From NCBI GenBank assembly GCA_963828255.1, contig CAWHDZ010000034.1, positions 124,862 to 188,861 of the forward strand: a stretch of DNA of 64,000 nucleotides. The letters are read 5' to 3'. Origin of the DNA: an uncultured delta proteobacterium (GTDB taxonomy: Bacteria; Myxococcota; Myxococcia; Myxococcales; Anaeromyxobacteraceae). The position numbers and the translations under genes are program-made. The notes below the pieces were generated by a model that was not told the DNA's origin, ran no database searches, and saw only the letters and a program-made list of their open reading frames with translations. This document shows, in pieces, positions 17,729 to 55,470 of the stretch (the stretch's first letter is position 1; each line of letters begins with the position of its first letter).

Positions 17729-17736
17729 GAAAAGAA

Positions 17737-17772
17737 GAGGCCCCATCAGTGTTTAGCTGGTGGGGCCTTTTC
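17737..17772 (+). terminator. Rho-independent terminator after the tRNA cluster
   Basis: Stem AGGCCCCATCAG / CTGGTGGGGCCT followed by a T run, with an A-rich flank upstream. Confidence 0.75.
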
Positions 17773-17933
17773 GTTGGCATCACCGACAGTGGAGTCATCA
17801 GCAAAACGTCAGCAAACGGTCGCCCCGGTTGCAGGACTTCCATCAAGAGAGGCGGCTACGCAGGCCCCGATGCTGGCCGTGGACATCCGCCAATCGTTCT
17901 GATGTCCTCGGCGGCAAGGCTCGGAGGGGACCA

Positions 17934-18143: not shown

Positions 18144-18150
18144 CGGCCTT

Positions 18151-18339
18151 TCAGGCAGCTTCGGCTGTGCGGTGCCCGTTCGTGGCTCCCTTGCCATGGA
18201 TGAGTTGGCCCAGATCATCCTCTGAGACTCGAATCGCGTTACCGACTCTGGAGTGCGCAAGGTCGTTTTTGGCGCAAAGCCGATAGACCGTCGCCGGACA
18301 CACGCCCAGGCGATGGGCGACTTCACGAACGGAGAGCAT
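18151..18339 (-). CDS. HTH_17/excisionase-like DNA-binding protein
   Basis: LSVREVAHRLGVCPATVYRLC...RVGNAIRV; overlaps the integrase stop. Confidence 0.8.
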   Translation of the reverse strand: MLSVREVAHRLGVCPATVYRLCAKNDLAHSRVGNAIRVSEDDLGQLIHGKGATNGHRTAEAA

Positions 18340-19645: not shown

Positions 19646-19646
19646 G

Positions 19647-19913
19647 TCATGCCACCGCCCTTCCCGCACCCCTCGATACCAACGGTATGGAACCTCGCTG
19701 CGAGAGAGCCCACTCCTGCAACTCGGCTGGTACGAAGCGGAGCTTGCTGCCGATGTACACTCGCGGGAGACGGGCTGCCGCAGCCGCATGGTAGACCCAA
19801 CTCACGCTCATCCCCGTGTACTGGGCCGCCTGCCGAACATCCCACAGCGCCTCTGGACTGCTGTCCTTCGTTCCCTTCATTCGGGAGTTGGCGGTCTGCG
19901 TAATAGAAGCCAT
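19647..19913 (-). CDS. HTH_17/AlpA-like excisionase (start uncertain)
   Basis: LWDVRQAAQYTGMSVSWVY...LPRVYIGSKLRF; directly upstream of int. Confidence 0.8.
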   Translation of the reverse strand: MASITQTANSRMKGTKDSSPEALWDVRQAAQYTGMSVSWVYHAAAAARLPRVYIGSKLRFVPAELQEWALSQRGSIPLVSRGAGRAVA

Positions 19914-20126
19914 TCCCGGGTTTGTTCTTCCGTCCATCTTCAAATCACTCGTTTCCTTGTCCTACATGCACCTCCTCGGGAGAGGTGGATCACCGTGACC
20001 AACAAGCTTGGTCTGCATCTAGGTATAGCCATAGGTTTGTAAGGCTTGCCTTGGGGCGCGTTATCCCAGTCCGGCTTAACTTCCCAAGCGGATGGCCCCT
20101 GCCTGAGCCGCTACAAACCAGTCCCG

Positions 20127-20720
20127 CTATTTTTCCCGGGCCAAAGCGCGAGCGACCGTGGACCTGGGGATTTTGGCGGCCACCGCGATCTCCCGGATGC
20201 TGCGACCCTGCTTCCGAAGGCCCCTGAGCCGAACGAGGTCGGGTTCTGACAGACGTAGAGGTCGCCCCCACCTGCCCCCGGCGGCCTCGATGCGCGTCCT
20301 CGCGGCAGCAATCCTGTCGTTGATGGCTGCCCTTTCCAGGCGCGCAGCAAGAGCGAGGGCGAAGATCAGGGTTTCCGAAACGATGTCGTCAGGGCCGGGG
20401 CGGATGGTGAGGTTGTCGGCCACCGCCACCAGGGCACAGCCAGCCTTCCGAAACTCATCCAGAACCCTGTAGGTATCGGAAACGCCGCTACGGGTCAGCC
20501 GGTCGAGCTTGAAGACGTAGATCTTGGAGACAAGGCCGTCCCGGACCTGGGCGCGGAGCTTGTCGAGAACAGGGCGGGCCAGCTTGCCACCCGACACCTT
20601 CTCCGAGTGCCAATCAGCGATCACTTCTCCACGCTCCTTGGCGGCACGCTTGATGGCGGATTCTTGGAGCCCAAGGTCCTGGCCCTTCGAGCTAACCCGT
20701 ATGTACGCGACGGTCTTCAA
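20127..20720 (-). CDS. Serine recombinase (resolvase/invertase) with C-terminal HTH
   Basis: AYIRVSS..Q, KLDRLTRS, GRP, SIREIA...STVAR. Confidence 0.9.
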   Translation of the reverse strand: MKTVAYIRVSSKGQDLGLQESAIKRAAKERGEVIADWHSEKVSGGKLARPVLDKLRAQVRDGLVSKIYVFKLDRLTRSGVSDTYRVLDEFRKAGCALVAVADNLTIRPGPDDIVSETLIFALALAARLERAAINDRIAAARTRIEAAGGRWGRPLRLSEPDLVRLRGLRKQGRSIREIAVAAKIPRSTVARALAREK

Positions 20721-27460: not shown

Positions 27461-28483
27461 GTGACCACGTCATTCGTAGAATACAGACCGACCCTGGAGA
27501 ACTACTGGCGCTCGGTCATACTCTTCGGGCTCAACGTCGCGTCGTACAAGTTCGCGCTGGGCAAGGCCCTGCTCGATCTCGCCCCGCAAGGGAATGACTT
27601 CGTGACCCTTGAAACACTGGCGGAGCCGTTCTCGCGACACGTCTGCGAGCACCTCAAGTCTGCTCCAAAGCAAGGCACCTTTGCAGAGAGCAAGTTCTTG
27701 AATGCCTGTAAGTCGTTCAACGACGGCCAGCTCTCCCAGGATCGACTGATCGGCGAGACTGTACGGCTCGGGTTCAATAACGTCATCGACGCATTTCATG
27801 TCGTGAATCGTGGGGAGATCGGGACACGGTTCTTTGTCGATGAGAGGAAGGGGGCCCAGAAGGGCATTCGCCTCACTGACCAGATTCGTACGCTCCGGGA
27901 AGCCTTCCAGTTCCGAAATCTCCCCGGCGAGATCGAAGCGCGGTGGAGGCTTGTCGAAACTTCATGGGAACTCAAGCTGCCCCGGCACGTCATAGCCATC
28001 GAGTACGACGAGACAACAGAGCGCCTCTTCGTCGATAGGTATGGATACGAACGAAGAGATGTGACGGCTTGTCGGGATGCCTTGAACGGTTACCAGCGAG
28101 GGAAGTGCTTCTACTGCCGCATCGACATCTCTATCGAGCCAGGTGGCGTAGATATCGATCACTTCTTCCCGCACACTCTTCATCGGTCAGGATACTTGGC
28201 CAATCCAAACGGGGTCTGGAACCTCGTTTTGGCGTGCGTCAACTGCAACCGTGGGACATCCGGGAAGTGGGCATTGGTGCCGGAACTGCGCTTTCTCGAA
28301 CGCCTGTACCGACGCGGCGAGTATCTCATCGGCAGTTTCCATCCCCTTCGCGAGACGCTGATGGCTCAGACAGGCGCGACTCCCGAAGAACGTAAGTCGT
28401 TCTTGCAGACACGCTGGAACGAGGCGGTCGGGCACCTCATTCACACCTGGCACCCTGAGAACGAACTGGAGCCGAACCTATGA
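27461..28483 (+). CDS. HNH endonuclease with N-terminal YKFAL-type domain
   Basis: NVASYKFALGKALL; CFYC...DIDHFFP...WNLVLACVNCN. Confidence 0.85.
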   Translation: MTTSFVEYRPTLENYWRSVILFGLNVASYKFALGKALLDLAPQGNDFVTLETLAEPFSRHVCEHLKSAPKQGTFAESKFLNACKSFNDGQLSQDRLIGETVRLGFNNVIDAFHVVNRGEIGTRFFVDERKGAQKGIRLTDQIRTLREAFQFRNLPGEIEARWRLVETSWELKLPRHVIAIEYDETTERLFVDRYGYERRDVTACRDALNGYQRGKCFYCRIDISIEPGGVDIDHFFPHTLHRSGYLANPNGVWNLVLACVNCNRGTSGKWALVPELRFLERLYRRGEYLIGSFHPLRETLMAQTGATPEERKSFLQTRWNEAVGHLIHTWHPENELEPNL

Positions 28484-28869
28484 CGGAGCGACCGTGCCCT
28501 TTCTGCGATCGTATTGCGGCTGGCAAGGTCGAGGCCGAGTCAAGGCTTGCAGTCGCCTTCCCGGATGGCTTTCCTGTCAGTAACGGCCATTTTCTGGTCG
28601 TCCCGAGGCGTCATGAGGCCGACTTCTTCGCGCTGACGCAAGCCGAGCAAGAAGACATGCTTGCTGTCGCCAGAGAGGTGGAGAGCCTCCTTCGGTCCAA
28701 GCACAGTCCTGCGGGGTTCAACGTCGGCATCAACGTCGGCACGGCTGCTGGCCAGACAGTCGGGCACGCTCACCTTCATCTGATTCCCCGGTACAACGGA
28801 GATGTGGCGGACCCGAGGGGCGGCATCAGGTGGGTGATCCCGACGAAGGCCCCCTACTGGGAACGGTAA
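28480..28869 (+). CDS. HIT family nucleotide hydrolase
   Basis: CPFC, GHFLVVP, AGQTVGHAHLHLIPR (histidine triad); ATGA overlap with the HNH gene. Confidence 0.92.
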   Translation: MTERPCPFCDRIAAGKVEAESRLAVAFPDGFPVSNGHFLVVPRRHEADFFALTQAEQEDMLAVAREVESLLRSKHSPAGFNVGINVGTAAGQTVGHAHLHLIPRYNGDVADPRGGIRWVIPTKAPYWER

Positions 28870-34086: not shown

Positions 34087-35181
34087 GTGCCTCCGAGAAC
34101 ACCCAGCAAGAGCCGCGTCCGTCGTGCAGCTGACGTCGAGGGCAAAGTCCGGTCCTGGCTTGTCAGGAGCGGCACCACCGTCTTGGACCCTCAGTCGCTC
34201 AGGAAGGCCGCAGCAGGGGAACAGGACCCGCTCAACTACATCGACTTCCTTGTCACGAAGCCATTTCCCTTGGCGATCGAAGTGAAGGGTTCCGTTACCG
34301 CGCTGCCCCTATCCGCAAAACGGCTTCTGTCGACCCGCATCCTCCTCGCCGAGTCGTTCGGACCCGACTTGCCTTTCGTCGTGGTTGCCGCCGACGGGGT
34401 CGGCCGGCCCACTTCACGAACGCAGCTTCCCTTTGTGGATCGAGTTCTTTTCGCTTCCCGCCTGCCGATTCTTGCAGACTTGGCGAATGTGCAAGTCCGG
34501 CGGGATTTTCGCACCATCTTTTCTCTCGGAGACCCAGGACCTGTGCAGTTCTCCTCTGCGACACAGGTGACCTCCGATTGGTCGCGGCCTTGCACTCTCG
34601 AAGACTTCCTCGGGAGGGTCAGGGTGGCGGACCGAGTGCTCGGGGCCGAACTTAGGCGATCCCTTGTGTCGCAACTCTCCCCAGATGCGTCCGAATCTCG
34701 CGACAGCACCCGCGCTGACTTTGCTGGGCTAACGCACGGGACATACTTTGCCCTCGTGGGAAAGCTTCAGGGCGAATTCTCGAGGCACCTTGAGGAGAAG
34801 GCAGGCCTACGCGTCATAGGCAAGACCCATCCCGGCACCGGGCTCGGGCAACTCACAGAACTGCGCTCCGCCGCTGGTTCAATCCTAGCGGTGGACTTGC
34901 TCTTCACTTCCCCCGGCTCTCTTTCCAGCAAGGTCCGAGAACTCGTCGCACGGGCCTGGCTTCTACGCGCGATGAAGTCCCCGTCGCCGGTTGTCCCCGT
35001 CCTAGTGCTCGCGCTTTTGGGCGGGACCTCGGGGGAGGACGGTGTCCCCAATTCGCCGGCACCGTCGTTGGCAAACCTCAACGCGTTGGAGTCTGCGGGC
35101 TGGCGAGTGCTCCCCTTTGACTTAGGCCATCCACAGAGCCAGTTGCTGGCTCGGCTCGAGGAACTTGCGCGATGCCCTTGA
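34087..35181 (+). CDS. Putative PD-(D/E)XK nuclease-domain protein
   Basis: VEGKVRSWL...IDFLV...AIEVK. Confidence 0.5.
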   Translation: MPPRTPSKSRVRRAADVEGKVRSWLVRSGTTVLDPQSLRKAAAGEQDPLNYIDFLVTKPFPLAIEVKGSVTALPLSAKRLLSTRILLAESFGPDLPFVVVAADGVGRPTSRTQLPFVDRVLFASRLPILADLANVQVRRDFRTIFSLGDPGPVQFSSATQVTSDWSRPCTLEDFLGRVRVADRVLGAELRRSLVSQLSPDASESRDSTRADFAGLTHGTYFALVGKLQGEFSRHLEEKAGLRVIGKTHPGTGLGQLTELRSAAGSILAVDLLFTSPGSLSSKVRELVARAWLLRAMKSPSPVVPVLVLALLGGTSGEDGVPNSPAPSLANLNALESAGWRVLPFDLGHPQSQLLARLEELARCP

Positions 35182-35813
35182 ACGCTCCCCAGGTCGATCA
35201 CATCAGTTTCTTTCCTTCGGCCCCACGGGAGCTGGAGGCAGCGCGTGCGCTTGCCGCGGCCCGGCACTTCACGGAAGCGGGGCTTCGGCTCGGTCGCGGT
35301 CTCGAGGCCTGCCTCTACGACGCCGCCCGCATGCTCAACCTGCAGATCACCGACCGCGTCCTCGCCAATCTCGAGGGGCTTCGAGAGACCCTCCGAGGCG
35401 ACATGATTGGAATCTTGCGTCACGGAAGTTCGGAATCCGTTCGACGTCTCGCCAACGCAGCCAGCGGGCTCTCAATCGCAATAGCAACTCTCTCGGAGAG
35501 CGCGGCGGCTCGGGCTGGTGTGGCATCAGAGACCCCCCGAAACCCTGAAGCCATCTTCCGGGACCTACTCGCGATGTCACCTGGCAAGTCGTTTCGACGG
35601 AAGCTCGAGTCTCACCAGGCGTCGATCCGAGAGGTTCGCATTCTCCGCAATGCAGCCGCCCACGCATCCCTTCACGGCCTGCCGAATGAACTCTCGGAGC
35701 AAGAGTACCTGCGAATGCTCGGGTCGTTGGATGGGTTCATGCTTTCCCTGTGTCTCTTGTGCATCGGGCAGATCGCCACCCAGGTCGCGCTTTCGGCCTC
35801 GCCTGCCCCCTGA
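35172..35813 (+). CDS. Putative HEPN-domain protein
   Basis: All-helical; GRGLEACL near the N-terminus and RNAAAH (RxxxxH) near the C-terminus; overlaps the upstream gene. Confidence 0.55.
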   Translation: MPLNAPQVDHISFFPSAPRELEAARALAAARHFTEAGLRLGRGLEACLYDAARMLNLQITDRVLANLEGLRETLRGDMIGILRHGSSESVRRLANAASGLSIAIATLSESAAARAGVASETPRNPEAIFRDLLAMSPGKSFRRKLESHQASIREVRILRNAAAHASLHGLPNELSEQEYLRMLGSLDGFMLSLCLLCIGQIATQVALSASPAP

Positions 35814-35956: not shown

Positions 35957-38189
35957 CTACGCAGCCCGCTGGAAGAACGCTCGTTCCTCCCAGGCGGCAA
36001 GCGCCGCCCTAGCCGCCTTCCCGTGCTTGGCGTGCCCTTTCCAGCGGCTCGCCACAACCTCCCTTCGCCTGGCGTCGAGGGCCGCGAGCACTTGATGACC
36101 AGCACCGAGTCTAGCCAGGATCCGGACGATGTCCCCTTCCAGGTCGGGCGAGAGGGCCTTAGCCCGCCCGGTAGTCACGTCCTCGGGCGGTTCAACGCCT
36201 CGAATCGACCGCGTCCAGCAACCGCATCCAGAGAGAGAGCCACGTCAGGATCTTGGGCCCCTCGAGGGTTCCGCTGTGCATGCGGACCTCGAGCGTGCCC
36301 AGGCTCCCGAACAGGCTACCCGCGCTCACCGCGAGGTAGCGTGCGCCCTCCTGCTCGAAGTGCCTTTGCCAGCCTCCGAGGGTCCGGAGCCCGCGCAGTT
36401 TCTTCCAGTGCCGACGAACGGGCTGGCAGTACCCGTTGTTGAACCGGGAAGGTGCGACGAGCGAGTGGAGCGCCGGTTCCATGAAGGCCACCCACCGGTG
36501 AAGGAGGCGCAAGCGTTCCAGGCTCGGGAGTCCCCAGCCGAGGTGGACGTGCGTTCCCGTCCGGAAGTCGACCGCGAGCCCAAACTCGCCCGCCGCCTTC
36601 TCCAACGCCTTGGTGACGTCGTGGAGTTCCTTGATGCCTTCCTCGCCACGCAGGACCCTGCTCGTCGCCTCCCAGCCGCAGGACCCGTCCCACTCGACGT
36701 TCCAGACCTCGTGGCTCTTCCTAGGGTCGTGCCCCTCCTGCAAGGGCCGCCGCGCCACCCTTCCTCGTCCCACGACCGTTTCGATCGCCGCCAGTAGGGC
36801 GCGCGCCACCTTCGTCCAGTCCGATGGCTTCTCCCCCACCCGGAACCCGCGCCTGGTGAGTTCGAGCTCGACGCCGAAGCTCTGGGCCGGCTGCAGTTCC
36901 AGGCCGTCGAGCCCCTTGTAGCCGGGCTCCGCCCGATAGCGCTGGATGGGCGCAGGTTCGAACGGGAAACGGGCCTTCGTCCCCGCTCGGCTCTCGACTC
37001 TCTTCCGGCTGGGGCATGACTTCCCCTCACCCCGCTGGGCACCATAGAAGTCGCTCGACCGTAACAGCTTGTCGGCGTGCGCCTCGAGTACGTCGACGAA
37101 GTCGACGATGTGGAAGCTCCTCTTTCCGGGGTGGATCCGGGCCCCTCGGCCCGCCATCTGCACGAACAAGATGTCGCTCGTGGTGGGACGGGCAAGGAAA
37201 ACGGTGCGAAGTTCGGGAATGTCGACGCCGTGGGTCGCCTTGGCCACGTTCACCAGCACATCCGTCGTGAACCCTCTCCGCGCTCGGAATCTCTCCAGGA
37301 CCTCCCGTTGCTGCTCTGCGCTCATTGCGCTGTGCACCGCCTCGGCCGAGACGCCGGCGGCGACGAAGAGCTTCTTCAGCCGCTCGGCATGCTCGATGTT
37401 GCAGGCGAAGACAAGGGTCTTGCCATAGCGCCTGCGGTTCTCCATCCACGTGGCGACGATCCGGTCGTTTCTCTTGCGGCTACGGCCCAACCTGCCGAGT
37501 GAACTCGGCGTGAAATCCCCGTTCGCCCCCGAGAGCTCGGGGCGCCACGCCACGCCGGTCTCCGTCCCCTTCTCCAGGATCGGCCTGGCGAGATACCCCG
37601 CCTTCACCAGGTCGTCGAAGGCGACGCGCACGATCGTCTCGTAGTCGCTCCAGACCCGTGGCGTTGCGGTGAGCCCGATGAAGAGAGCCGTGCGGACCAG
37701 GCGCTTTTCCAGAGCCCTGTACATCGTCCCCGCCTCTCCCCAGTGGACCTCGTCGACGACGACAAGGTCGAAGCGCTGCCGCTGGAGATCCTCGTTGCGG
37801 GCCACCAGCGTGTGCACGGTGCTGTAGACGATCCGTCCGTGCGCTCCCTCCGGGATCTCCGGCAGTTCGTGGCGGCCCCCCAGTCGAGTTGTGAGGCGAC
37901 GGAGCTCCGGGTGGGCGCCGAGGAGGTCATTCACGGCTTGCCGAATGAGCCACCAGTCCTTGGTGACCCAGAGCACTCGCTTGCCGGCGGCGAGCGACTT
38001 CAGGACCGGACCTTCGTTCGCGACGAGCGTCTTGCCGCTGCCAGTGGGCATTTGGACGAGCAGCTTGGTTCCCGGTCGGCCCGGGAGGTGCAGGGCGATG
38101 TCCGCCACGGCGGTAGCCTGGTAGTCGCGAAGGACGCGGGCAGCCTTGGGGGAGTTGCCGTTTCGGTTGGACACGGGTGGTGGACGCAC
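35957..38189 (-). CDS. SF2 (ResIII/DEAD-like) helicase fused to an Amidoligase_2-type domain; probable +1 frameshift at ~36203 (ORF as given stops at 36192)
   Basis: LRDYQ, MPTGSGKT, VDEVH, LTATP, QMAGRGAR; then SFGVELEL, VEWDGSC.WEATS, GTHVH, APSR, TLEVRMHSGTL. Confidence 0.8.
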
Positions 38190-38274: not shown

Positions 38275-39375
38275 ATGACCAGGAAGCGCAAGTCCGCCAG
38301 AAGTCGCGAAACCAGGCGAGCCGCCGGGCCAGTGCCCGTCGACCGCCGAAACACGCGCCTTCGCTTTGAGCAGTGGGTGCGAAACCCCCGCTGCGCGGCA
38401 AACACCGCCTCCGCCATTCTCGGCGTCAGCATGGCTGTCGTGGCGGAGATGGAGAAGTTGCCCACGACCATGGGGCAGTCCCCCTTTGCCATCGCCCGCG
38501 GTCAGCAGTTCGAAAGGGGGCTATTCCGTGAGGACGCCTCGAGGCTCCGGCAGGCGCTCGCCAGGGTAGGCATTGCGCCCCCTCCGGGTCTCGCCGACTT
38601 CCGCCTCCGTCAGGCCGGGGGCCCCATGGCCGACCTCGATACCGCGCGGGCGGGCACCGAGACCCTCCTGCGAACAGCCGCCTCCGGCCAGCTCGTTCCA
38701 GGGATCGTCGCGGGGGCCTGCCTGGGCCTGCCCGGACGGCAGCCGATGCTACCGGAGGCGATGCTCGCGCTCGACGTCCTCGTCGTCCTCCCGGGAGAGC
38801 CGACGACGCTCATGGTGGGAGAGGTGAAGACCTACGCGGACCGGGGCGGGTACACGGATTGGGGCGAACTCGCCACGGCGCGGGCCCAGGCCGGGGTCTA
38901 CGTCCATGCCCTCGATGAGTTCCGGGTCGCGTCGGGCCTCGAGGACTCGCTTCAGGTGGCGGACTCGGGCTTCCTCGTGCTGAGCCGCCCTGGATCCAAC
39001 TTCCCGGTCGTGCGCCCCGCGGAGGACCTCCGGTACCAGGCTACCCGTGCGCAGCGCGGCCTGGAACGGCTCCGCGACCGTGCATCCGAGCTCGCAGGCG
39101 CCATCGTCGCGGGGGCCGATCCCATTGCGACGATAACCGCTGCCGACTGCAGCTACTCGCCGACCTGCGTGTCCTTCTGCGACCGGTCCCCGGCCTGCTT
39201 TCGGAAGGCGCTCGCCGCGGGAGACGCCGCGGTCCTGGGCGAGGACGTCGGCCGGTTCGTGGGTACGATCCCGCTCGACAGGGTCGTCGCTCTCCTAAAG
39301 GGAGATGCGCCCGCCACCGAGGCGGAGCTGTCGCTCTCCGCCCGCCTCCTCGACCTCGAAGGCGCCACGCCGTGA
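38275..39375 (+). CDS. Cas4/Dna2-like PD-(D/E)XK nuclease with probable Fe-S cysteines
   Basis: NPRC...ARGQQFE...LDVL...GEVK...QAGVY...CVSFCDRSPAC. Confidence 0.65.
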   Translation: MTRKRKSARSRETRRAAGPVPVDRRNTRLRFEQWVRNPRCAANTASAILGVSMAVVAEMEKLPTTMGQSPFAIARGQQFERGLFREDASRLRQALARVGIAPPPGLADFRLRQAGGPMADLDTARAGTETLLRTAASGQLVPGIVAGACLGLPGRQPMLPEAMLALDVLVVLPGEPTTLMVGEVKTYADRGGYTDWGELATARAQAGVYVHALDEFRVASGLEDSLQVADSGFLVLSRPGSNFPVVRPAEDLRYQATRAQRGLERLRDRASELAGAIVAGADPIATITAADCSYSPTCVSFCDRSPACFRKALAAGDAAVLGEDVGRFVGTIPLDRVVALLKGDAPATEAELSLSARLLDLEGATP

Positions 39376-40884
39376 ACGAGCGAGCCGTCCTTCGCCGTCT
39401 TCGCGCATACGCAACCGGAGGGCCGATGCCCCGAGGGAGCACGTTGCACGTTCCGCGCCCGGGTGGCGACGACCTCCTCGTCGCCTTCGTCCGCATGGGC
39501 GGGGAATCGTTGCCCTGGGGGGTCGCCTGGTCCTTCGGCGGCCTGAAGCCCCGGGCTCTGACCGTGCCGGAGCCTCGCGACCGGGAACTGGTCGGCGCGA
39601 TGATGGCGGAATTCTCGAACGTGATCCTGCCGCACGCAGGACATCCTGGGTTCGGCGACCCGCTCGAGGATGGCCAGGTGCCCCCGCCGATTCTGGGTGC
39701 CGAATCCCACCCACCTGTCGATGTTCCACTTCGTGGCCATCGCCTACGTGAACGCTCGTAAGGGCGAGCCCGACCGGGTTGGCGCCCTGAACGCGCTCGG
39801 CCGGCACGCGACCTGGCTCTTCCTCGAGGCACAGCGTGCAGGGCAGCAGGCGCTGCTCGACGCCACCGACGTCCTGCGAGAGTCCTTCACGTTCCCGTCC
39901 GACGACGTGCGCCAGGCACACCTGGGCTACCTGCTCGCCCTGCTCCGCACCCCGGGCCCCATCAACGCCCGCCTCGACGCCGCCGCCACCGCCGAGCGCC
40001 TTTCCGTGGCGACGAGTCTCGACCCCGAGATTGAGCGGAAGGAACTCGAGCCACTCGTGGAGGCGTACCGTGAAGTGACGAAGGCGGGAGACCAGGCGGC
40101 GACGACGCGCGCGACGACTGCGATCGACGCCATCCTTCGCCGGGAACTCTTCCGCCGGCTGGAACTCGTCTCGCAGGCACGCGACGTGGTCCGCGCCGAT
40201 CCCCGGGAACCGAACTCGGGCCTCGCGACCCTACGGAAGAGTGCGGCCTACCAGTACCAGGGGTACATGCGCCGGGAGGAACAGCTCGTGTCAGGAACTG
40301 GCCGCCCGTTCGTCCCCTCCCCCATCACCGATTTTGACCCCACCGCTGCGGCCCGGAACTTCCGGGTCCTCGAGTCGAGCGAACGAGCACGAATGGTGGC
40401 CCTCATTCATCACGACCAGGAGATGCTGGACGAGGCAGTCGCCTCCGGCGATGCATTCGTCGGTCGCCTATCGGAGGTCCGGGACGAGGGGCAGGGGCGG
40501 AAGACGACGCCAGTCTGGGAGATTGAGACCGCCGGGTCCGGCCCGCTGCGGCTCCGGGAGGGTGGCGAGGTCTGCGTGGCCGGGCTTCCGAGGCGCATGG
40601 GCAGGATCCGCTCCATCGATCTCACCCGGGCCGGACGGGTGATCGAGGTGGAGATCACGGGACTCAAGACCGTGCCGCGCAAGCCTGTGGACGGCGAGGT
40701 AGTCCTCCCGGCGACCGACCCTGGCCTCGAGGGTGCCGAGATCACGATGCTCGCTGCCGGGCCCGATCCCGTGGTGCTCATGATGAGGAGCCACGCATTC
40801 GACGGCGACGGGCCGGGTAGCTGGCTCACCCACTCCCGCCCCGGCGAGGCCGGCAAGGGCCAGATGGAGGAGGAGCCCGCGTGA
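39372..40884 (+). CDS. Hypothetical protein (helical region + C-terminal beta-barrel); frameshift in the C-run at 39681-39685
   Basis: ORFs 39372-39761 and 39670-40884 join after removing one C; GTGA overlaps at both ends. Confidence 0.65.
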
Positions 40885-42219
40885 CCCCCGGCCAACTGAA
40901 GGCCATGATCGACGCCAGGCGCGACGACGTCTTCGCTCGCCTCATGGGAAGGCTCCAGCGTCCTCGGTCGGTCGTCGTGGTCAAGGCGCCCCCGGGCTCC
41001 GGAAAGACCCACCTCCTCGTCGACTCGGTGGCGGCAGCGCTGGGTCAGGACATGCGCGTTGCCGTCGCGACCCAGACGAGCGCCCAGGCCGACGCCGTTT
41101 GCCTTCGCCTGGCCCGGCGCGTTCCGGCAGTTGCTTCCACCCGCTTCCTCGGGAGCGGAGGCGCGATGGAGGAGCGCCATTCGCTCGTTGCCGAGGTTCG
41201 CCATGGCGCCCAGCTCCCGTCCGGGAACGCCATCGTGGTAGCGACCACGGCCAAGTGGGAGTATGCCCCGCCGTCACCCGCCTTCGACGTCGTCGTGGTG
41301 GACGAGGCGTGGCAGATGCCCTGGTTCCGGTTCATGGGGCTCGGCAACGTCGCGCCCCGCTTCGTGCTCATTGGCGACCCCGGCCAGATCCCTCCGATTG
41401 TCACCGTGGACGCGTCCCGATGGGAGGTGGCGCCCCGCCCGCCGCATCGGGCCGCCCCGGAGCTCATCCTGGCCGACCAGTCGTTGGACTTCCTCGACCT
41501 CGAGTTGCCGGCGTCGCGGCGCCTGCCGTACGACACGGTCCAGCTCATCCAGCCCTTCTACGATTTCCCCTTCGCTTCCTACTCGGCTCCCGGCGAGAGG
41601 CGCATCGAGACCTCGGGGAGGTCCCGCGACGATGTGGACAAGGCTCTCGACCTGCTCGGGGACGGGAGCGTCTCCGGGATCACCCTTCCCTGCCCCGACG
41701 GCGGCCCGCCGCTCGACGTGGACGACGCCATCGCCGCGACCGCCGTCGACGTGGGGCGACGGGCGCTCCGCCGACAGGCGACGTTCGTAGCTGAGGATGC
41801 ATCCCCGGCCGAGCGCCGCATCGTGCTCGAGCCTCGACACATCGGCATCGTCGCGACACACAGGGTCATGAACGCGCGCATCGCCGAGTTGCTCCCTCGC
41901 GAGATGCGCGACGTGCGCGTGGAAACCCCGGAGCGCTGGCAGGGCCTGGAGCGCGAACTCATGGTCATGGTGCACCCGCTCTCGGGCGTGGTGGACCCAT
42001 CGTCCTTCGACCTCGACACAGGACGCCTCTGCGTGATGTCGTCCCGGCATCGTGGAGGGCTCGTTGTCCTGAGCCGCGACCACGTCCGGGAGTCCCTTGA
42101 GGAGCACGTGCCGGTCGCCGACCAGCCCGTCGGCCAGCCCGATTCGAACGGGCGCGGGCACACTCGCCACCTTGGATTCTGGACGGATTCTCGAGGAACG
42201 GGGGAGGTTGGTCGCGTGA
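40881..42219 (+). CDS. SF1 (Upf1/Dna2-like) helicase; probable +1 insertion at ~42189
   Basis: APPGSGKT, VVDEAWQ, IGDPGQIPP, SRRL, ETPERWQGLE, RLCVMSSRHR. Confidence 0.8.
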
Positions 42220-47262: not shown

Positions 47263-48052
47263 AGTCGACTCCTTTTCGTCACCCGTTACGATCAGGGGAC
47301 GCAGGACCTGACCGACTCCTGACAGCCAGGCCTGGCCGGCTGGACATGTCCGGCGGCTAGTTAGGCTTCCAGCTGAACTTGGCGAAAGGACTTGGGCCGT
47401 TACCGACGGGCTGCCCGCATCCCTGCTCCACGCGCTCTCGCGGCCCGACCCGTCGTGGTTCGTGCGCCCGAACCGGCTCGATGCGTCCCGGTCCATCCAC
47501 GGCGTGCCACACACGCTCCCGGTGATGATCCACGCGGTGGAGATCACGGAGGCGCTCCCCATGCAGCGCGGGAACGGTAGACCGTCGTCCAGACTGCCCT
47601 CTGGCACGGCCTAGGGCAGACGGAAACCAGGCGGACGACCTCCACGGCGCAAAGTGCGCCGTGGAAGTGGCCGGTCTAGGGCTTCGCCGCCGTTTGAACT
47701 TCTTCCCGCCCCCGCATGGGCAGGGATCGCTCATTGCACACTTGAATGTGGGACTCATTCTCGTCATCTGCTGCCTGGAATTGCTCGCGCCCTCTTTCCC
47801 GGGTGACGACAAAGCAGAATCTGCCTTCCGGCCTCGATGCGAGTCAGTTCTGGCGAGACGGCCGTGTCGCGGAAACACCGCCAGTTCCAACCTCATTCTG
47901 TTTTATGCGGAATGGCTGCCCGCTCCTTCATCCCCGTGCGTGCCGATGGCAGTGGAGGTGTCTCCGGGGAATGGGACACGAGCGCCAGCCCCTCGATCTC
48001 CTCACGCGGAATCGCCCCAATTCACAACCCTTACACATATGATGTCTTCCCA

Positions 48053-51000
48053 ATGCACGAGGATGTGAAGGCGGCCAGCGCGGAAGCGGAACTTGAGGAC
48101 GTTCGGGCGAGGTATCTAAACCTGTCCGAACAACACAAGCGGCGTCTCCTCGCATATGTCGCCAGGAACGACGACAAGGCCTTCGATCTATGGCTGACGC
48201 GCGTCCAGAAGCGGAGTCGGATCAAGGGCGTTCACCGCGGCAATGTGCTGGCCCGGGTGGCGCCCTATGGTGCGCACCTTGACGCGGCGCTCTTCGAACG
48301 TGGTCCGGGGTTGCCGATAAGAATATTCAAGTGCCGCTTCGGGTATGGTGACTATGAGCCGAACGCGACCTTCCTTCGGATGATGGAGGAGCGAGGTAAC
48401 GAGCGGAATGGGAGCGATCCCGAGTTGGTGCGAAGCGCTCTGGAGGAGATCGCAGCGCAGACCGATGACGAGGAGTTCGACCTCTACTGCGCGGCGCTTC
48501 GGTTGGTTGAGCCGCTGTGGTTCAAGGGCGCGTCAACTGAAACTCGCGCTCTTCTATCACCTGACAACACGGTCGATCAGGCAGGCGTTCCGCCGAATGC
48601 AACCGTCAAGGCTTCCGCGCCCGCGGAGCCGGACCAGATGGCTCAACCGGACGCGCTAGCCCAACCGGACACGGTGGCTCCGCCGGACGACGTGGACACC
48701 GATTCGCTTGCCGTCCCCGAGGGCACCGGACCGAACGACGAATCCGCGGCTGTCGGCCAGACCAACGCGGAGTTCGAGGCCGCTGCGAGCCTGCTTCTCG
48801 AGGCCGTGGAACTCGGTGCCGAGGACCTAGCCAAGGCCCATGACATCCTCAAGCACTGCGCGTCCGAGTATGAGCGATGGACTCGGGAGGCCCACGATCA
48901 ATACGCAAGCGGCTCTGCGGACGCCTATCGCAGCGCCACCGAGGCGATTGCCAACCTCCTTCCGCAACGCCAGGAAGCGGCGCGCAAGGTGAGTGCTACC
49001 TGCGAGGTCCTCGGGCCACAGATCGATGCCGTGGCGGCGTTGCTTGAGGGTGCTCCGGGGAACTCCGCGCTGGGGACTGTCCTTTCCCAGATCGCGGAGT
49101 CGGTTCAGGCTGCCAGGATCTCCTACGACTCCTCCATTGCCGATGGGCTGCGCAACGGAGCCGGTACGATTCGGGAACGCCTCAGGTCACTTCGGGAGGG
49201 CCAACTCGCGGGACTGAGCCAAGAGGTGAGTGCACTTGCGGCGAAGTTGGAGTCGCTCGACCAGGACGCTTCAGAGTCCCGCCACCTGATACAGGATCGA
49301 GTGTACCTGGACAGGCCCATCGACGAAGGCCGGCGGCGACTCGAGAACGAGGCGGCGATTCTGCGCCGCAGGATCGAGGAGGCCGATGCGAACCGGGCGT
49401 CACGCTCTCTCGAGGTCCTGGCCGAGATGCTCGACTCCAAGAAGGTGAGCGACTTCGGCCACGCAATCGCCTTGCTGAGGTCGGGCCAGACGGCTGGTGA
49501 GGCCCGACGCCTTCGCAGCCTCGGTCTTGGCTTGATGCAGCAGAACCGCGAGGCGGAAGGTCCTTTCGCCGACCGCCTGAGCGTCTGGCAGGACCTCGTA
49601 AGCATCATTACCGCGAATGGGGCGGACGCCCTCAGCCCCGACGAGTGTGCGCTATCTTTACCAGCAGGGATGCTGGAGCGGGTCGAGGATCTTGTCGCGG
49701 TTCTCCCCGGTGCCATCGAGGCAGTTGGGATTGCGCAGGAAGGCGACGCTCCGTGGGGCCTCGCCGAAGCGTTCTGGGCCGCGGGGTCCTTGGCTTGGGC
49801 AAGAGCCGCGGGCCAGGTCGCATGGGACCGAACCCGGTCCAGGCCAGCGCTCGCTCGATGGCTGCAGAAGTCGGGGTTGCCGCCAACCCGGCAGCAGCTT
49901 TCCGCTTTGGTCGAGGCACTCGGGGCGGCTGAGTGCATTGCCCTCCGCTCTTTGGCCGCTGCGCGTGGACTGGAGTCGGAGAACCACAGCGAAACCCTCC
50001 TGATCGCTGCCTGGATCGACCGGGAAGAGCCCTACCCGGACATTCACTGCCTCGAGGTCGCGGCGAACGGATACCTGGAATCAAACCTTCCCGGCGCAGT
50101 CGTCCTCTGTTCCGTCGCGGTGCGAAGCGGGCTCGAAGGCTTGATTTCCAATCGGTGGCTCGACGTGATTCGCACCGCGGGGTGCGGTCACGTTTCGGCA
50201 GTCTTCACGGCCTACCAGCGCATCGGCAGGGAGGAGCTTTCCAGGCGGGTCGCCCAACTCACCGAATCGAGAAATGCTGGGGAGGAACTCGTCCGTCTAA
50301 CAAGGGACCGCAACCCCAAGAGCGCAACGGCTTACGAGGTCTGGAAGAGGGACCTCGAACCACTGCTAGGAAGGTTCCGGGCTCGGCTCGTCGACTCGGC
50401 AACGCGACCGGAAGCGCTTAGCGAGCTTCAGGATCTTGATGCGGAAAAGGTCACACGCAATGCCGCCAATCGTCGAGCCCCTGGACTTAACCGCCGGGCC
50501 TTGGACACGCTCTGCGAGTGGGTCGAGGCTCACAAGGCTCGATTGCCAGTTGCAACTGTTCGCCCAGAGCTTCCCCTGGAATTCTACGAAGAACGAGTTC
50601 GCGGAGCTCTTCGCGGGGAAGCCGATATTCTCGTGCAATCAGGGCCTCTTGGAGTTGTAGCGAGAACGCTCCTCGCCGTGATCCTGAAGCACCCCTTCCC
50701 ACCGGCCCAACCGGGAAGCAACGTTGAGTTCGAGGATTGCCGAAGGACCGTCTTCGAACACCTTCTTTCCATGGACGCCGACCCTCTCGTTTATTGGCGA
50801 TTCATGACTAGCGACGGTCCCGGATGGCTGGAGGCAACTGGCGAGGACGTCCTCGAGAGGATTGCTGACGGTTCGGGCTGGCGCCTCGCGGCCCTCGGGT
50901 ACATTCGAGGGAGGCGATATGGGCTGGCGGAGCGCCTGCTCGCGGCGACCCCGGCCGGCGAAAAGCCCGTGATCGAGGAAATTGTCCGTCCGAAGATTGA

Positions 51001-53857
51001 GGACGTTCGCAAGGACCAGAGGGGCTTGATCGAGGCACTCGCCATCGCTCCGCTCGAGGCCGCAAGTGCCGGTTGGGGAGTCGACGCGAAGCCTGAGTTG
51101 CGCTTTGACATCGAAAGGCTTCAGGAGGGAGCGCGCCTACTTCTCGCCAAGTTGGGCTCGCAAGACGTTGACGCGGTGGAGCGCGAACTTGCCGGTCTCC
51201 TCGACCAAATCGCCATTGTGACCGAGGACTGTGCAGCAGCGGAGCGCGCGGAACGAGATCTTGTCGCGAATCGCATCTTCCGCGCTGCAGAGCAGTTCCG
51301 CTGCGGCAACCCCATCTCCCAGCCTGTCCTTGTGACACGCCTGATTCTGGCAGCATCGAGCGGACACCGGACAGAGGCCACTCGCCTGGCGACGGTACCT
51401 CCGGAGTCGCATGATTATTCCCGCGAGGAGCCGCGGTCCGAACCCGAAGGCGACGCCCTGACGGCACCGGTTGCAACCCGATCCCATCCCTGCATGGAAG
51501 TGTCGGTCTCGCAGTTAAGCGTCCTCACCAAGGGCGCCTGGGACTTGACGACCGTCCCCGACGGCTTCCAGGTGAACGGCACTCCCGGTGATGTCGCCGC
51601 TTCCAGCAGTACTGATCGATTTGACTCCCTCCTTCGATCAGCGAAGAAGCTTCACGGCACGGGCGACGGGCGGTGGAGGAACTGGCTCGCATGTTGGGCC
51701 GTGGAGATGGGCAAGCGGCGCGCCAAGGATAGCAGCTTCGTAAATACCGCGATGCTGTCGCGTGACGCGCTCGTGCTACTCGCTCCTACCGGGTCGGACG
51801 ACGAGTTGCTCCGGGATCAAGCCCTGCTGTTGTGGCTTGCCTCGAGAATCGAGACTACCAACCTCTCGCTGGCCCGGCAGGCGCCGGACTGGGACGTGCT
51901 GCTTCGCTCTGCTGGTGTTCGAGTGCTGGGTCAGATCGTTCGGAGGTTTTTCGAGCTCGGAGCCGGGGACCTCCTCGCCGAGTCGCTGGCGGATCTCGCA
52001 GAGGTCGGAGGCGCGCCACTTCCGCGCGTCCTTTCGACCCTTGCAGGGAAGGAGTTTCACCTGCGGGCCCAGCTAGTCCGGGACCTAGTTCGGTTTGCCC
52101 CGGAGGGCGGTGGCGGGAACTTGCGAGTGACCGTCGACCTGCTGATGCCTTGGCTGGCACCGGAAGCAATCGAGAGCGTCGAGCGGAACTTGGCGGCAGC
52201 CATGGCGGGAGGCGGCGATTCATCGGCTCCTACTGCCGTCGCAAGGCAGGCTCTCGTTGACGCCGCGGTCCCACAGGAGATCCTGGAGCGCCTAGAGGAC
52301 GGGCTGAGGCGACGCGCAGAAGGGGACGCATCCCAGTCCGAGACGGGGCAGGCTCACCGCCTTACTGGCCGCGTACTCTCCAAGTCGATCTACGCATCCG
52401 CTACTGAGACCGAGGCCGGAGGAGAGATCGTCGTCGAGATCGGGCGGAGGGGTGGCAAGGGCACCCTCAGGGGGCTTCGAGCCGCCCTCACTCTCGAGCA
52501 TCCTTCGCTCGCCATCGAGGCCGAGAACCGAGTACGCGACCTCGGGGTCTTGCGCCCCGACGAGACCAAGGAGTTGACGTTCAAGTTCGTCGTCGCTTCT
52601 CCAGGCATTTCGGCAGCGCCCTCGGCCAAGGCGACCGCAACCGTCTTGGTATACGGCAGCGAGGACGCCCCACTCCTCCAGCGTCGTTTCGTGATCAATG
52701 TCGGGAAGGAGTACCCGTATCGCCACGCCTTGAGCCCTTACGTCTACGGGAAGTGCCTCACTAGCCTCGATCTCATCAAGGGTCGCGAACGGGAGACGAC
52801 CGAGATCCTCGACACCTTGCGGGGACAGCATGACGACAACTTCGTCGTGATCTACGGGATGCGACGAATCGGGAAGTCCTCGCTCCTCCAGAAACTCAGC
52901 TTGGACGTGCGCGCCCGCAGGCGATACGTGCCCGTCCACCTCGATCTCGAGCACTACCTCAAGTCGAAGGACACGTCCGTGACCTTCCTGGAAAAGCTTG
53001 CCGAGGGGATCCAGCGCGACATTCCCGATCGACGCGCTAAGGAGGTACGCCCTCCAGCCGGTGCCACCGACGCCCGCATCTTCCCTGAGTTCGAGAAGTA
53101 CCTTCGCGCCGTGGCCGACCGGTTGGCTCCCGAGAAGCGCTTGCTCCTGCTCTTCGACGAGTTTCAGATGCTCTTCACGCGCTCGATGGCCGAGCAGATG
53201 CAGGATGTCATCAAGAGTCTTCGGCACTGGATCCAGTTCCTGCCGATTTCCTTCGTTGCTGCTGGTACTCCGGAACTGCAGGACGCGACCATCGGGCCGG
53301 AGCAGCGGCTTTTCCAACTGGGTGTGCCGATCAAGGTGGGCCCGCTCGACGAGATAGCCGCCCGGGACCTGATTCGCGAGCCGGTGGCACAGACCTTCTA
53401 CGTGACCCCGCGGGCCGTCGACGCCATCGTCAACGACTGCAAGGGGTTGCCCAACCTTATCCAAGCGGTCTGCGTTGGGCTCTTCAACAACGTGAAAGCG
53501 TCAGAGAAGACCGTGGCGACATTTGATGACGCGGAACGCGCGCTCGATCAGGTGTCCTCCGCAGCGGAGTACTTCTCGTTCCTCATCGCCCCCCTTGAGC
53601 GGAAGAGCATGCAGAAGATGGTTATGCGGGCCCTCGCCGCAATCACGCAGGACGAGGCCAGAGGCACGCCAGAGGGGATCCTGGATCACCTTCGGATTCA
53701 CGGGAGGGGCGACGAGATCGACCAGGCATCCCTGGAAATGGTGCTGAAGGAGCTGAAGGACTTGGGAATCGCATTCCATTGGCAGAAGGGGGAGTGGCGC
53801 CTGCAGCCACCGATCCTCGCGCGCCACGTCATGCAAAGAGCGGAGTTCGCACTGTGA
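48053..53857 (+). CDS. Very large protein with C-terminal STAND/AAA-type NTPase and winged helix (start uncertain)
   Basis: SPYVYG...GRERE, GMRRIGKSS (Walker A), LLLFDEFQ (Walker B), GLPNLIQ; preceded by a beta-sandwich segment and about 1400 aa of helical sequence. Confidence 0.75.
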   Translation: MHEDVKAASAEAELEDVRARYLNLSEQHKRRLLAYVARNDDKAFDLWLTRVQKRSRIKGVHRGNVLARVAPYGAHLDAALFERGPGLPIRIFKCRFGYGDYEPNATFLRMMEERGNERNGSDPELVRSALEEIAAQTDDEEFDLYCAALRLVEPLWFKGASTETRALLSPDNTVDQAGVPPNATVKASAPAEPDQMAQPDALAQPDTVAPPDDVDTDSLAVPEGTGPNDESAAVGQTNAEFEAAASLLLEAVELGAEDLAKAHDILKHCASEYERWTREAHDQYASGSADAYRSATEAIANLLPQRQEAARKVSATCEVLGPQIDAVAALLEGAPGNSALGTVLSQIAESVQAARISYDSSIADGLRNGAGTIRERLRSLREGQLAGLSQEVSALAAKLESLDQDASESRHLIQDRVYLDRPIDEGRRRLENEAAILRRRIEEADANRASRSLEVLAEMLDSKKVSDFGHAIALLRSGQTAGEARRLRSLGLGLMQQNREAEGPFADRLSVWQDLVSIITANGADALSPDECALSLPAGMLERVEDLVAVLPGAIEAVGIAQEGDAPWGLAEAFWAAGSLAWARAAGQVAWDRTRSRPALARWLQKSGLPPTRQQLSALVEALGAAECIALRSLAAARGLESENHSETLLIAAWIDREEPYPDIHCLEVAANGYLESNLPGAVVLCSVAVRSGLEGLISNRWLDVIRTAGCGHVSAVFTAYQRIGREELSRRVAQLTESRNAGEELVRLTRDRNPKSATAYEVWKRDLEPLLGRFRARLVDSATRPEALSELQDLDAEKVTRNAANRRAPGLNRRALDTLCEWVEAHKARLPVATVRPELPLEFYEERVRGALRGEADILVQSGPLGVVARTLLAVILKHPFPPAQPGSNVEFEDCRRTVFEHLLSMDADPLVYWRFMTSDGPGWLEATGEDVLERIADGSGWRLAALGYIRGRRYGLAERLLAATPAGEKPVIEEIVRPKIEDVRKDQRGLIEALAIAPLEAASAGWGVDAKPELRFDIERLQEGARLLLAKLGSQDVDAVERELAGLLDQIAIVTEDCAAAERAERDLVANRIFRAAEQFRCGNPISQPVLVTRLILAASSGHRTEATRLATVPPESHDYSREEPRSEPEGDALTAPVATRSHPCMEVSVSQLSVLTKGAWDLTTVPDGFQVNGTPGDVAASSSTDRFDSLLRSAKKLHGTGDGRWRNWLACWAVEMGKRRAKDSSFVNTAMLSRDALVLLAPTGSDDELLRDQALLLWLASRIETTNLSLARQAPDWDVLLRSAGVRVLGQIVRRFFELGAGDLLAESLADLAEVGGAPLPRVLSTLAGKEFHLRAQLVRDLVRFAPEGGGGNLRVTVDLLMPWLAPEAIESVERNLAAAMAGGGDSSAPTAVARQALVDAAVPQEILERLEDGLRRRAEGDASQSETGQAHRLTGRVLSKSIYASATETEAGGEIVVEIGRRGGKGTLRGLRAALTLEHPSLAIEAENRVRDLGVLRPDETKELTFKFVVASPGISAAPSAKATATVLVYGSEDAPLLQRRFVINVGKEYPYRHALSPYVYGKCLTSLDLIKGRERETTEILDTLRGQHDDNFVVIYGMRRIGKSSLLQKLSLDVRARRRYVPVHLDLEHYLKSKDTSVTFLEKLAEGIQRDIPDRRAKEVRPPAGATDARIFPEFEKYLRAVADRLAPEKRLLLLFDEFQMLFTRSMAEQMQDVIKSLRHWIQFLPISFVAAGTPELQDATIGPEQRLFQLGVPIKVGPLDEIAARDLIREPVAQTFYVTPRAVDAIVNDCKGLPNLIQAVCVGLFNNVKASEKTVATFDDAERALDQVSSAAEYFSFLIAPLERKSMQKMVMRALAAITQDEARGTPEGILDHLRIHGRGDEIDQASLEMVLKELKDLGIAFHWQKGEWRLQPPILARHVMQRAEFAL

Positions 53858-55470
53858 ACGATTCGAACCGCACGCAACCCTTCGGAGCGCGACAGGCGCT
53901 CCCGCCCGGCGCGACATCCTTTGGCGGACGGAAACGACTGGACGAGGTTCTCGCTCTGCTGGGAACACTCGATTCCGAGAATTCCGTATCGGTCTCCGGT
54001 CCCAGACAGAGCGGTAAGTCGAGCCTCCTGCAGCAGTTGTCCGACGCCAGCGCCCTGCAGCCGTATCCTAGCCTAACCGGTGCACTCGTGGTTCAGGCCG
54101 ACTTCAGGGATTTTCGCGGAAGGGCGGCCAGCGCGATCCAATACCTTATCGACACAATCGCAGCGAAACTCGATGAGGAGGCCGTTCCAGGCGGAGCTGC
54201 GGTCCGCAAGTCGGGGACTATGGTGACGGCGGTGCGGAATGCCCTGCACGCTTTGGGCGGACGTCGCCTTATTATCGCGATCGACGACTTCGAGTACGTC
54301 GGGTCGGACCTGAAGAAGGACGAGCAAGCAGACCTTCGGAACGCCGTGTACAAGCAGCCAAACGCAGGTTATGTCGTCGCATCCAGACTGGCGCTCTCCC
54401 GGTGTTTGGAGGAATTCGGGGATCCCCTGAGCGATTTCGCTCCCTCTTGCGTGCGTCTCCCCCGCCTGCTTGGGCCGCTAGGTGTGAGGGATATCCAGCA
54501 CATGATCGAGCGGGCCCTCCCGACGATGCCGGCCGAGACGAGGCATGCGGCCGCAAAGGTTGTCCATGACCGAGTCGGGGGCTTTGCATGCTGGGTTCAG
54601 CAGGCTCTTGCGCTGGCCGTCAGGCATATTCCAGACAGCGACGGGCGGCTCCTCGAACGGCAGTTTGAAGATGAGCTCTTCGAGCGCCTTCAGGACGACT
54701 TCGCACTCGGGTATAGGCGCCTGTCGGCACGGACCCAGCGTTACATCGAGGAGTCGGCGATTGGGGATGGCCTGGACGGCGAGGATCAACTCGAGCTCGA
54801 GATCAGCGGGTGGACCACTCCCGGGAGCCCGACCTTCAAGCCCAGCGGCAACCTCGTGGAGCGCTGGATCCGGTCGGGCGCCTGGGAGCGCCAGCCCGTG
54901 CGCGCCGCCGCCGTCGAGTCCGACCCGTATGAGCGCCTCGTCAGGGCCGTCGAACTCGTAAACCGTCGTCACCAGCGAGCCACCGGGCGGGCAAGCGAGT
55001 TCGTGATCCGTCCCGATGTCTTCTTCTCCTCTAGCGACATTGCGTTCCTTCGGAGGGAAACGCAGTGCGAGGAAGACCTGGGGCGAAAGGTTCTGGTTCT
55101 GGCCCGACTCCTCTACGAGGGTTCGGGCGGAGCAACCAAGGGGCGCCTTCGACTCCCTCAGTGGTGCTACGACGATCCCGGCAGCATCGTCTACCAGGTG
55201 ACTCGGCTCCGGCACGCCTTCGTTCACCTCGAGAACCCCAACGCCTCAGAGGCGTCCAGGGACCTTCAGGCCGAGGCGCAGGTCTATAGAAGGTACGTCG
55301 GCGTGCTGGATCCCAGTTCGCTCGACCAGTACAAGAAGCTTGGCGAGGCCTTGATTGAAGAGGCAATCTTCCAGCTTGAGTGCATGAGGGACTACTGCCC
55401 GTTCGTGCCGGATCTCAAGCTCGGCGCCCTGATCGCCGAATCCAGAGGAGGCTCAGGGGCGAAGGATTGA
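53854..55470 (+). CDS. STAND/AAA-type NTPase with putative C-terminal HEPN-like domain
   Basis: FGGRK, GPRQSGKSS, IIAIDDFE; C-terminal LRHAFVH; GTGA overlap with the upstream gene. Confidence 0.72.
   Translation: MNDSNRTQPFGARQALPPGATSFGGRKRLDEVLALLGTLDSENSVSVSGPRQSGKSSLLQQLSDASALQPYPSLTGALVVQADFRDFRGRAASAIQYLIDTIAAKLDEEAVPGGAAVRKSGTMVTAVRNALHALGGRRLIIAIDDFEYVGSDLKKDEQADLRNAVYKQPNAGYVVASRLALSRCLEEFGDPLSDFAPSCVRLPRLLGPLGVRDIQHMIERALPTMPAETRHAAAKVVHDRVGGFACWVQQALALAVRHIPDSDGRLLERQFEDELFERLQDDFALGYRRLSARTQRYIEESAIGDGLDGEDQLELEISGWTTPGSPTFKPSGNLVERWIRSGAWERQPVRAAAVESDPYERLVRAVELVNRRHQRATGRASEFVIRPDVFFSSSDIAFLRRETQCEEDLGRKVLVLARLLYEGSGGATKGRLRLPQWCYDDPGSIVYQVTRLRHAFVHLENPNASEASRDLQAEAQVYRRYVGVLDPSSLDQYKKLGEALIEEAIFQLECMRDYCPFVPDLKLGALIAESRGGSGAKD

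Follow-up and report, generated by a model that had tools for sequence, protein, structure and literature searches.

The window analysed here (64,000 nucleotides) carries on its reverse strand, at 38189–35957, a gene for a RadD/HsdR-like SF2 helicase joined to an Amidoligase_2 domain and a C-terminal helical cap; in the assembly the gene is interrupted by one extra base at position 36203. The open reading frame (ORF) that runs from 38189 to 36192 encodes 665 amino acids and contains three Pfam domains above their cut-offs in a single frame, ResIII (aa 20–178, E 6e-19), Helicase_C (aa 249–352, E 5e-15) and Amidoligase_2 (PF12224; aa 436–656, E 2e-14), the last of which scores 54.3 bits against a gathering score of 22 and covers positions 3–243 of the 245 in the profile. 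The first-pass annotation of this DNA had read a complete set of helicase motifs followed in frame by an amidoligase signature and had proposed a Pfam scan; the scan agrees for all three domains, and every motif quoted can be located. The SF2 DExH helicase/translocase domain (37083–38132, reverse strand, as for all parts of the gene) has motifs Q, I, II, III and VI intact across two RecA domains; these include a Q motif, a Walker A sequence GSGKT (Walker A at 38051–38028), DEVH (37763–37743), TAT and QMAGRGAR (motif VI at 37160–37137). A linker (36906–37082) that is partly disordered in the structure model (pLDDT < 50 at residues 381–400 of the homologue P0003) leads to the Amidoligase_2 domain, a COOH-NH2 ligase of the GS/GCS fold (36207–36905). 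Its motifs are FGVELEL (36878–36858), WDGSCGWE (36692–36669), GTHVH (36557–36543), PSR (aa 580–582) and TLEVRMHSGT (36296–36267), and its putative catalytic residues are E441, E443, D501, E507, H547, R582, E634 and R636. The helical cap (35957–36202, ∼80 aa) lies in a second reading frame, where tblastn with P0003 finds it at E 6e-29; it has no Pfam match. The window protein is the minimal form of the fusion family described below.

The extra base at 36203 shifts the frame and brings an early stop at 36192, as judged from the P0003 alignment and from Logan contigs. P0003, the nearest homologue (738 aa, 82% identical), aligns as far as 36204 and then in the other frame to a stop at 35957. Near-identical Logan contigs of runs X2 and X4, from two studies, lack the base; their depths are 4.8 and 2.8 (both < 5), the X2 contig having no mismatches and reaching only 20 bases beyond 36203, and the X4 contig having four mismatches and being the sole one that bridges the position by at least 31 letters on both sides. 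Two further apparent frameshifts lie within 6 kb of the gene, near 39680 and 42190. Because P0003 and contigs from two studies are without the base, and because of these further frameshifts nearby, it is probably an assembly error rather than a mutation of the strain, so that the flag which the first-pass annotation had put on 36203 was well placed. Helicase and amidoligase are already joined in full upstream of the frameshift, and the fusion itself is independent of the base. The frameshifts, together with a contamination of 6.6% in the source genome, could be taken to mean that the gene is an assembly artefact or a decayed pseudogene, yet there are 198 independent fused homologues, near-identical contigs without the extra base exist, and GC3 is 0.8–0.9 in the frame of the 665-aa ORF and high in that frame only. 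Such an explanation for the gene has a very remote probability, and for the fusion itself it is refuted, which also settles the concern that the fusion might be a local assembly error lacking homologues.

The gene lies ∼18 kb inside a low-GC tRNA-integrase island. The left edge of the island (17399–20720) consists of two tRNA-Ser genes and a tRNA-Arg gene, followed by a tyrosine integrase (18326–19789) and a resolvase (20127–20720); the segment 17399–25326 also holds a RepB-like primase and an AAA_25 helicase. At this edge GC drops from ∼0.73 to 0.63 (the source genome has 0.71) and stays low to the end of the window and on to the end of the contig, on which no attR repeat was found. The gene's island neighbours, none of which accompanies the fusion at other loci, are genes for an HNH nuclease, for STAND ATPases and for a HEPN-like protein, and an operon with an SF1 helicase. 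The HNH-type nuclease (27461–28869, forward strand; weak PtuB-like matches) is coupled to a HIT hydrolase, and at 47837–55470 (forward) a 2006-aa protein that carries a STAND/AAA ATPase at its C-terminus is followed by a second ATPase. Immediately upstream of the fusion gene, a divergent three-gene operon (38278–42216, forward) encodes a 365-aa protein, an unknown protein and the SF1 helicase; the 365-aa protein has matches at 0.98 to ESM clusters that are unnamed and mostly actinobacterial, and offers a weak PD-(D/E)XK lead, and the operon is possibly another undescribed island system. On the other side lies a convergent overlapping pair (34087–35813, forward) of a 364-aa protein and a 213-aa HEPN-like protein (35172–35813; RNAAAH motif), neither of which has a match in Pfam, PADLOC, PHROG or NCBIfam. 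A coupling of the fusion to the divergent operon or to the convergent HEPN-like gene was considered and rejected, as neither recurs at homologous loci. No GGCT/AIG2, amidotransferase or poly-gamma-glutamate hydrolase gene adjoins the fusion in the window; two ORFs of the AIG2 family lie on other contigs of the source genome, and a genome search with PF06094 matched none.

Structure models were made of the full-length homologue P0003 and, since full-length fold searches were filled by the helicase, of the ligase domain alone. The P0003 model (mean pLDDT 89.9, pTM 0.57, disordered linker) is consistent with two tethered modules. The closest solved fold to its motor is RadD (6jde; Z 31.4, rmsd 4.0, 338 residues aligned), and Foldseek likewise places RadD first (E 2.6e-17), followed by SauUSI, XPB, type ISP and HsdR. 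RadD/YejH and the type I HsdR/SauUSI-type SF2 helicases are thus the groups that the motor matches best in structure and by HMM, and it belongs to neither by score: it reaches 84.7 bits against 720 for RadD/YejH, with a structural match confined to RadD residues 2–414 of 567, and 88 against 550 for the type I/III restriction subunit R, in the helicase part only. Unlike HsdR, the fusion lacks a nuclease domain and is not coupled to HsdM/S, and no methyltransferase partner recurs.

In VIA, the 19 highest-ranking matches to the ligase-only model (pLDDT 94.5) come without exception from GS, GCS/YbdK, GmaS, Dop and PafA (Z 12.1–7.8), the best being 2ojw (rmsd 3.5, 194 aligned); naphthylamine GS, which like GmaS is a small-amine glutamylating enzyme, is also among its GS-fold relatives, Foldseek gives YbdK as best (E 2.5e-6), and viral amidoligases reach a TM score of 0.72 against it. 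Such likeness in fold does not by itself reveal a substrate. The Pfam match and these models agree with the earlier assignment of the C-terminal domain to the amidoligase fold. A PDB sequence search with the ligase profile returned nothing significant, and a profile comparison with YbdK-like proteins aligned 40 columns at a probability of 45%, covering the GxHVH strand and the next helix only. YbdK, GCS, GmaS and PafA/Dop resemble the fusion ligase in fold over the whole domain, and YbdK-like proteins share its ExE and GxHxH strands; the fusion ligase differs from these GS/GCS-fold enzymes in being only 10–19% identical to them, in its minimal 235-aa core and in its tether to a DNA motor. The conserved ligase residues were matched to what we take to be the corresponding catalytic roles in GS.

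The first-pass annotation had called for homologues of the same architecture to be sought, and they proved numerous: both the helicase and PF12224 are present in 81 of 119 non-self proteins among the homology-search matches listed, and 312 proteins pooled from the homology searches include 199 complete fusions (the window protein among them). Clustering at 60% helicase identity leaves 153 groups, and the median domain identities are 34–36% (34% for the ligase). The Walker A lysine K53, the Walker B residues D146 and E147, and the motif VI glutamine are present in all 199, and all eight putative ligase catalytic residues (the ExE, D/E, H, R and ExR set) are kept in 186 of 199 and in the window protein. 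A C-terminal tail of at least 40 aa is present in 196 of 199, with Trp columns conserved at 98% and 89%. Helicase and ligase identities are correlated (rho 0.70; permutation maximum 0.12), the domain trees are congruent, with only one of 40 strongly supported ligase splits in conflict with the helicase tree, and fused and stand-alone ligases separate in 89 of 100 bootstraps (FastTree; subsample of 40 fused and 21 stand-alone). The conservation of the residues, the congruent trees and the separate ligase clade together point to one old fusion in which selection appears to have been maintained at both active sites. A ligase profile built from fused members finds a helicase domain in 66 of its 67 top long matches; short ligase-only matches above 150 bits, which lie on contigs < 7 kb, are probably fragments. 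At three loci the helicase and the ligase occupy two adjacent ORFs (L027:1225–4035, L045:2619–5375 and L054:4666–7816).

One may ask whether the ligase domain chiefly serves the helicase, by binding a ligand or in regulation, with its catalysis dispensable. The remaining 13 of the 199 fusions lack one ligase residue or, in most cases, several and have kept the helicase, in at least two lineages, and several helicases within the clade carry tails other than the ligase. Retention of the eight residues by the large majority, at a median ligase identity of about one-third, and the eraser genes that accompany intact members (below) argue in the opposite direction, and make a merely regulatory ligase quite improbable. 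A decayed ligase site beside an intact helicase is seen in L059 and in P0261, P0267, P0268, P0270, P0272, P0083 and P0084. More distant helicase relatives have TerB, HNH or T5orf172 domains in the ligase's place.

Beyond this shared core, the members carry variable additions. N-terminal helical extensions are present in 71 of 199 fusions, 33 of them with acidic tracts, and some match SAP; C-terminal GNAT-like domains were recognized by motif in nine of 199, three with Pfam support, and N-terminal GNATs occur in Competibacteraceae fusions. There is also a winged-helix-like tail (judged by eye), one fused GGACT (P0142) and one fused FGE domain.

The named carriers belong to the Myxococcota, Bdellovibrionota, Planctomycetota and Competibacteraceae, and include the cultured Stieleria maiorica and Roseiconus nitratireducens. 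The gene was absent from all 91 other genomes of the window's own family and from 38 genomes of another class, 401 genomes of the phylum contained one other fused copy, and in a Planctomycetota-centred sample of 401 genomes only the centre genome had it; it is a rare, sporadic accessory gene. A viral contig search gave no fused relative (11 loci matched the helicase part only), a phage search gave distant stand-alone amidoligases only (32 records, of which 15 listed at 28–31% identity), a plasmid search gave a single record, again a distant stand-alone amidoligase, and the ESM Atlas gave generic helicase clusters only, at 0.90.

Evidence on the chemistry comes from neighbouring genes. At seven of 30 fusion loci a gene for a gamma-glutamyl cyclotransferase (GGACT/AIG2) follows the fusion on the same strand within 1 kb, compared with none of 44 helicase-only loci; the 30 are non-redundant loci with at least 500 bp of downstream sequence (seven redundant loci and eight with too little sequence were dropped), the scanning profile was built from five of the seven positive loci, and the 44 controls are distant, partly redundant and partly viral, and were scanned with the GGACT profile only. 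Each of the seven genes has a Pfam GGACT or AIG2 match, there are two GGACT sequence types, and the fused proteins at these loci (six of seven compared) are 33–55% identical to one another. In four Bdellovibrionales loci (L029–L032) a PF05908 poly-gamma-glutamate hydrolase gene lies directly upstream of the fusion; these represent one lineage (71–86% identical) in two genomic flank settings. The first-pass annotation had stated that amidoligases normally stand alone or beside glutamine amidotransferases; for the fusion family the partner, where there is one, is instead a cyclotransferase, and no glutamine amidotransferase adjoins the fusion at the loci scanned with Pfam. The idea of a universal operon partner was discarded, the largest neighbour cluster covering only five of 50 loci.

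Two of the seven GGACT partners are HEPN-like–GGACT fusions (L022:12154–13257 and L048:12207–13286), and L050:12210–12578 encodes the N-terminal part of such a partner where the locus ends. Their N-domain is helical, has an RNxLLH motif in the two complete copies and matches nothing in Pfam or NCBIfam. The ligase might accordingly be imagined as the antitoxin arm of a pair, glutamylating and silencing the HEPN-like partner, whose own GGACT would reactivate it when the motor is inhibited or titrated. The position of these genes directly after the fusion, and the HEPN-like gene convergent with it in the window, are in keeping with such an arrangement. It would apply to three loci only, however, through an N-domain that lacks a database match, and a profile of that domain has no match in the source genome, so the HEPN-like gene of the window is unrelated to it; an antitoxin role is improbable.

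Among 21 non-redundant loci scanned with PADLOC (111 selected proteins), named defence genes occur at five (BREX-2 with DruE-like, Septu, type I RM, PDC candidates and a type II MTase) and none at 16; tyrosine integrases occur at six of 29 loci of at least 6 kb, and by our own tally 15 of these 29 have a mobility or defence-type gene and 14 are host-like or unannotated, all of these fractions being given without a background control. A regular linkage with BREX (pglX/pglZ/brxC) was rejected, BREX being present at only one of the 21 loci, and base-modification genes or a cognate nuclease do not recur near the fusion. At L016:7534–9366 and L037:4593–9741 PolA-like (and primase) genes immediately precede the fusion, with tyrosine integrases close by, which suggests that there it travels as cargo on self-replicating integrative elements.

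Phages and islands commonly carry Amidoligase_2 enzymes; these were reportedly described by Iyer et al. 2009 as COOH-NH2 ligases found in phages and mobile elements next to AIG2/GGCT or amidotransferase genes, and we know of no substrate reported for any of them. The fusion resembles them in its Pfam match, GS fold, motifs and, at some loci, its GGACT neighbour, and differs in its SF2 motor, its private helical cap, its own ligase clade and its occurrence in bacterial genomes rather than in the viral, phage and plasmid collections searched. The cassette of Amidoligase_2 with GGCT or amidotransferase is not found in the window and is found at the seven GGACT loci. Passages of one report describe amidoligase and GGCT pairs in prophages without a helicase and cite a role in cell-wall modification (PMC11318856). 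Such a role fits the fusion poorly because it has no export signal or amidotransferase; the existence of those prophage pairs means that the GGACT partner informs the chemistry and not a defence function. In the main-text passages of a BREX survey (PMC12839542) the terms ‘ligase’, ‘cyclotransferase’ and ‘glutam’ are absent, and PMC7824862, PMC3417536 and PMC12353581 contribute reference-list mentions only. In PADLOC and NCBIfam no model covers the ligase part, and the helicase part alone is matched, below cut-offs where these are given, in line with the earlier remark that the fusion was not recognizable among described defence systems. The titles and abstracts searched contain no description of a helicase-amidoligase fusion (supplements and subscription papers lay outside their scope, and Iyer et al. 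2009 may mention it). It is apparently a motor-tethered, co-evolving variant of the amidoligase-GGCT module that is undescribed in print. The nearest parallels in logic are single-gene helicase-effector defence proteins, DarTG and HEPN-MNT, which share a motor with an effector, a writer with an eraser, and sporadic siting in islands; the effector of the fusion differs in being an amide ligase, not a nuclease or ADP-ribosyltransferase.

GS-fold enzymes use ATP to form gamma-glutamyl phosphate. The fusion protein is very probably an active ATP-dependent amide ligase. Two unrelated families that break gamma-glutamyl amides adjoin it at some homologous loci, and its fold is one that makes gamma-glutamyl amides, so a gamma-glutamyl product is probable; the amide ligation put forward in the first-pass annotation thus finds support in the GS fold and the partners and would be narrowed from protein, base or metabolite modification at large to the making of gamma-glutamyl amides. 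As the DNA motor is intact and its tether to the ligase conserved, we infer that the reaction is triggered by DNA or aimed at something on DNA. A role in defence or conflict is slightly favoured, by the sporadic island distribution and by the nuclease and TerB domains on distant relatives; the enrichment of defence genes is modest.

On the reading that we prefer, which as a whole has somewhat less than even odds, the fusion would be a DNA-triggered gamma-glutamylating enzyme directed against phage or mobile DNA and reversed by a cyclotransferase. The RadD/HsdR-like motor would load on DNA, probably at replication intermediates with forks or gaps, and in some members the SAP-like or winged-helix-like extensions would assist; the tethered ligase would use ATP to make gamma-glutamyl phosphate and pass the glutamyl group to a primary amine near the DNA, the likeliest acceptor being a lysine of a DNA-bound protein. 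The mark may stall replication or growth of the infected cell, and would be erased by GGACT or, in one lineage, by the poly-gamma-glutamate hydrolase; where no eraser is adjacent, as in the window, host-encoded AIG2-family enzymes might take that part. Cyclotransferases require a free alpha-amine on the glutamyl group, so free glutamate is the likely donor; a GGACT eraser suits it better than a Pup-like donor, and no gene for a Pup-like tag was seen. A broader form of the proposal, in which the DNA translocase halts infection by marking proteins on the DNA, or amine-bearing phage bases, with (poly-)gamma-glutamate, cyclotransferases and poly-gamma-glutamate hydrolases erase it and the fused GNATs cap amines, seems doubtful.

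The choice of a lysine over a base is a weak preference, made because the ligase is not basic and base-modification genes are absent nearby. Were the ligase to write on DNA itself, the motor would scan or open DNA and amine-bearing bases (hypermodified phage bases or exposed exocyclic amines) would be glutamylated as a blocking lesion or self mark, with GGACT as the eraser, in a logic like that of DarTG. Covalent attachment of the ligase to a DNA motor and the SAP domains of some members fit this, and passages of PMC8989533 describe phage contigs that hold amidoligase genes of unknown function along with genes for thymidine hypermodification. Fusion does not, however, go with a more basic ligase domain (median net charge per 100 aa −0.8 for fused and +2.9 for stand-alone domains), so that net charge lends no support to a basic DNA-binding surface on the ligase, the lack of recurring base-modification genes or a cognate nuclease counts against writing on bases as well, and exocyclic amines are poor nucleophiles, as is generally known. 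We therefore regard glutamylation of DNA bases as rather unlikely.

Glutamylation may also have nothing to do with defence. The RadD-like motor could act at stalled forks in DNA damage or island maintenance, where it would set off the production of a small gamma-glutamyl amide, such as a glutamylated polyamine, or of a regulatory protein mark, which GGACT recycles; RadD as the closest solved fold, the long loci (about half) that lack defence and mobility genes, the company of PolA, primase and integrase genes at L016 and L037, and the small-amine glutamylating GmaS and naphthylamine GS among the fold relatives would all suit such an enzyme. Its very sporadic distribution and the lack of a conserved neighbourhood are untypical for housekeeping repair, though, and its RadD equivalog score is 85 against a cut-off of 720; a repair or maintenance function is unlikely. 

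The family ties an amidoligase to a DNA motor in one soluble polypeptide, with matched erasers, so that both the product and the trigger of such an enzyme should be open to assay. If the role of the fusion is indeed defensive, gamma-glutamylation would be added to the writer-eraser chemistries of phage conflict, beside ADP-ribosylation and nucleotidylation.
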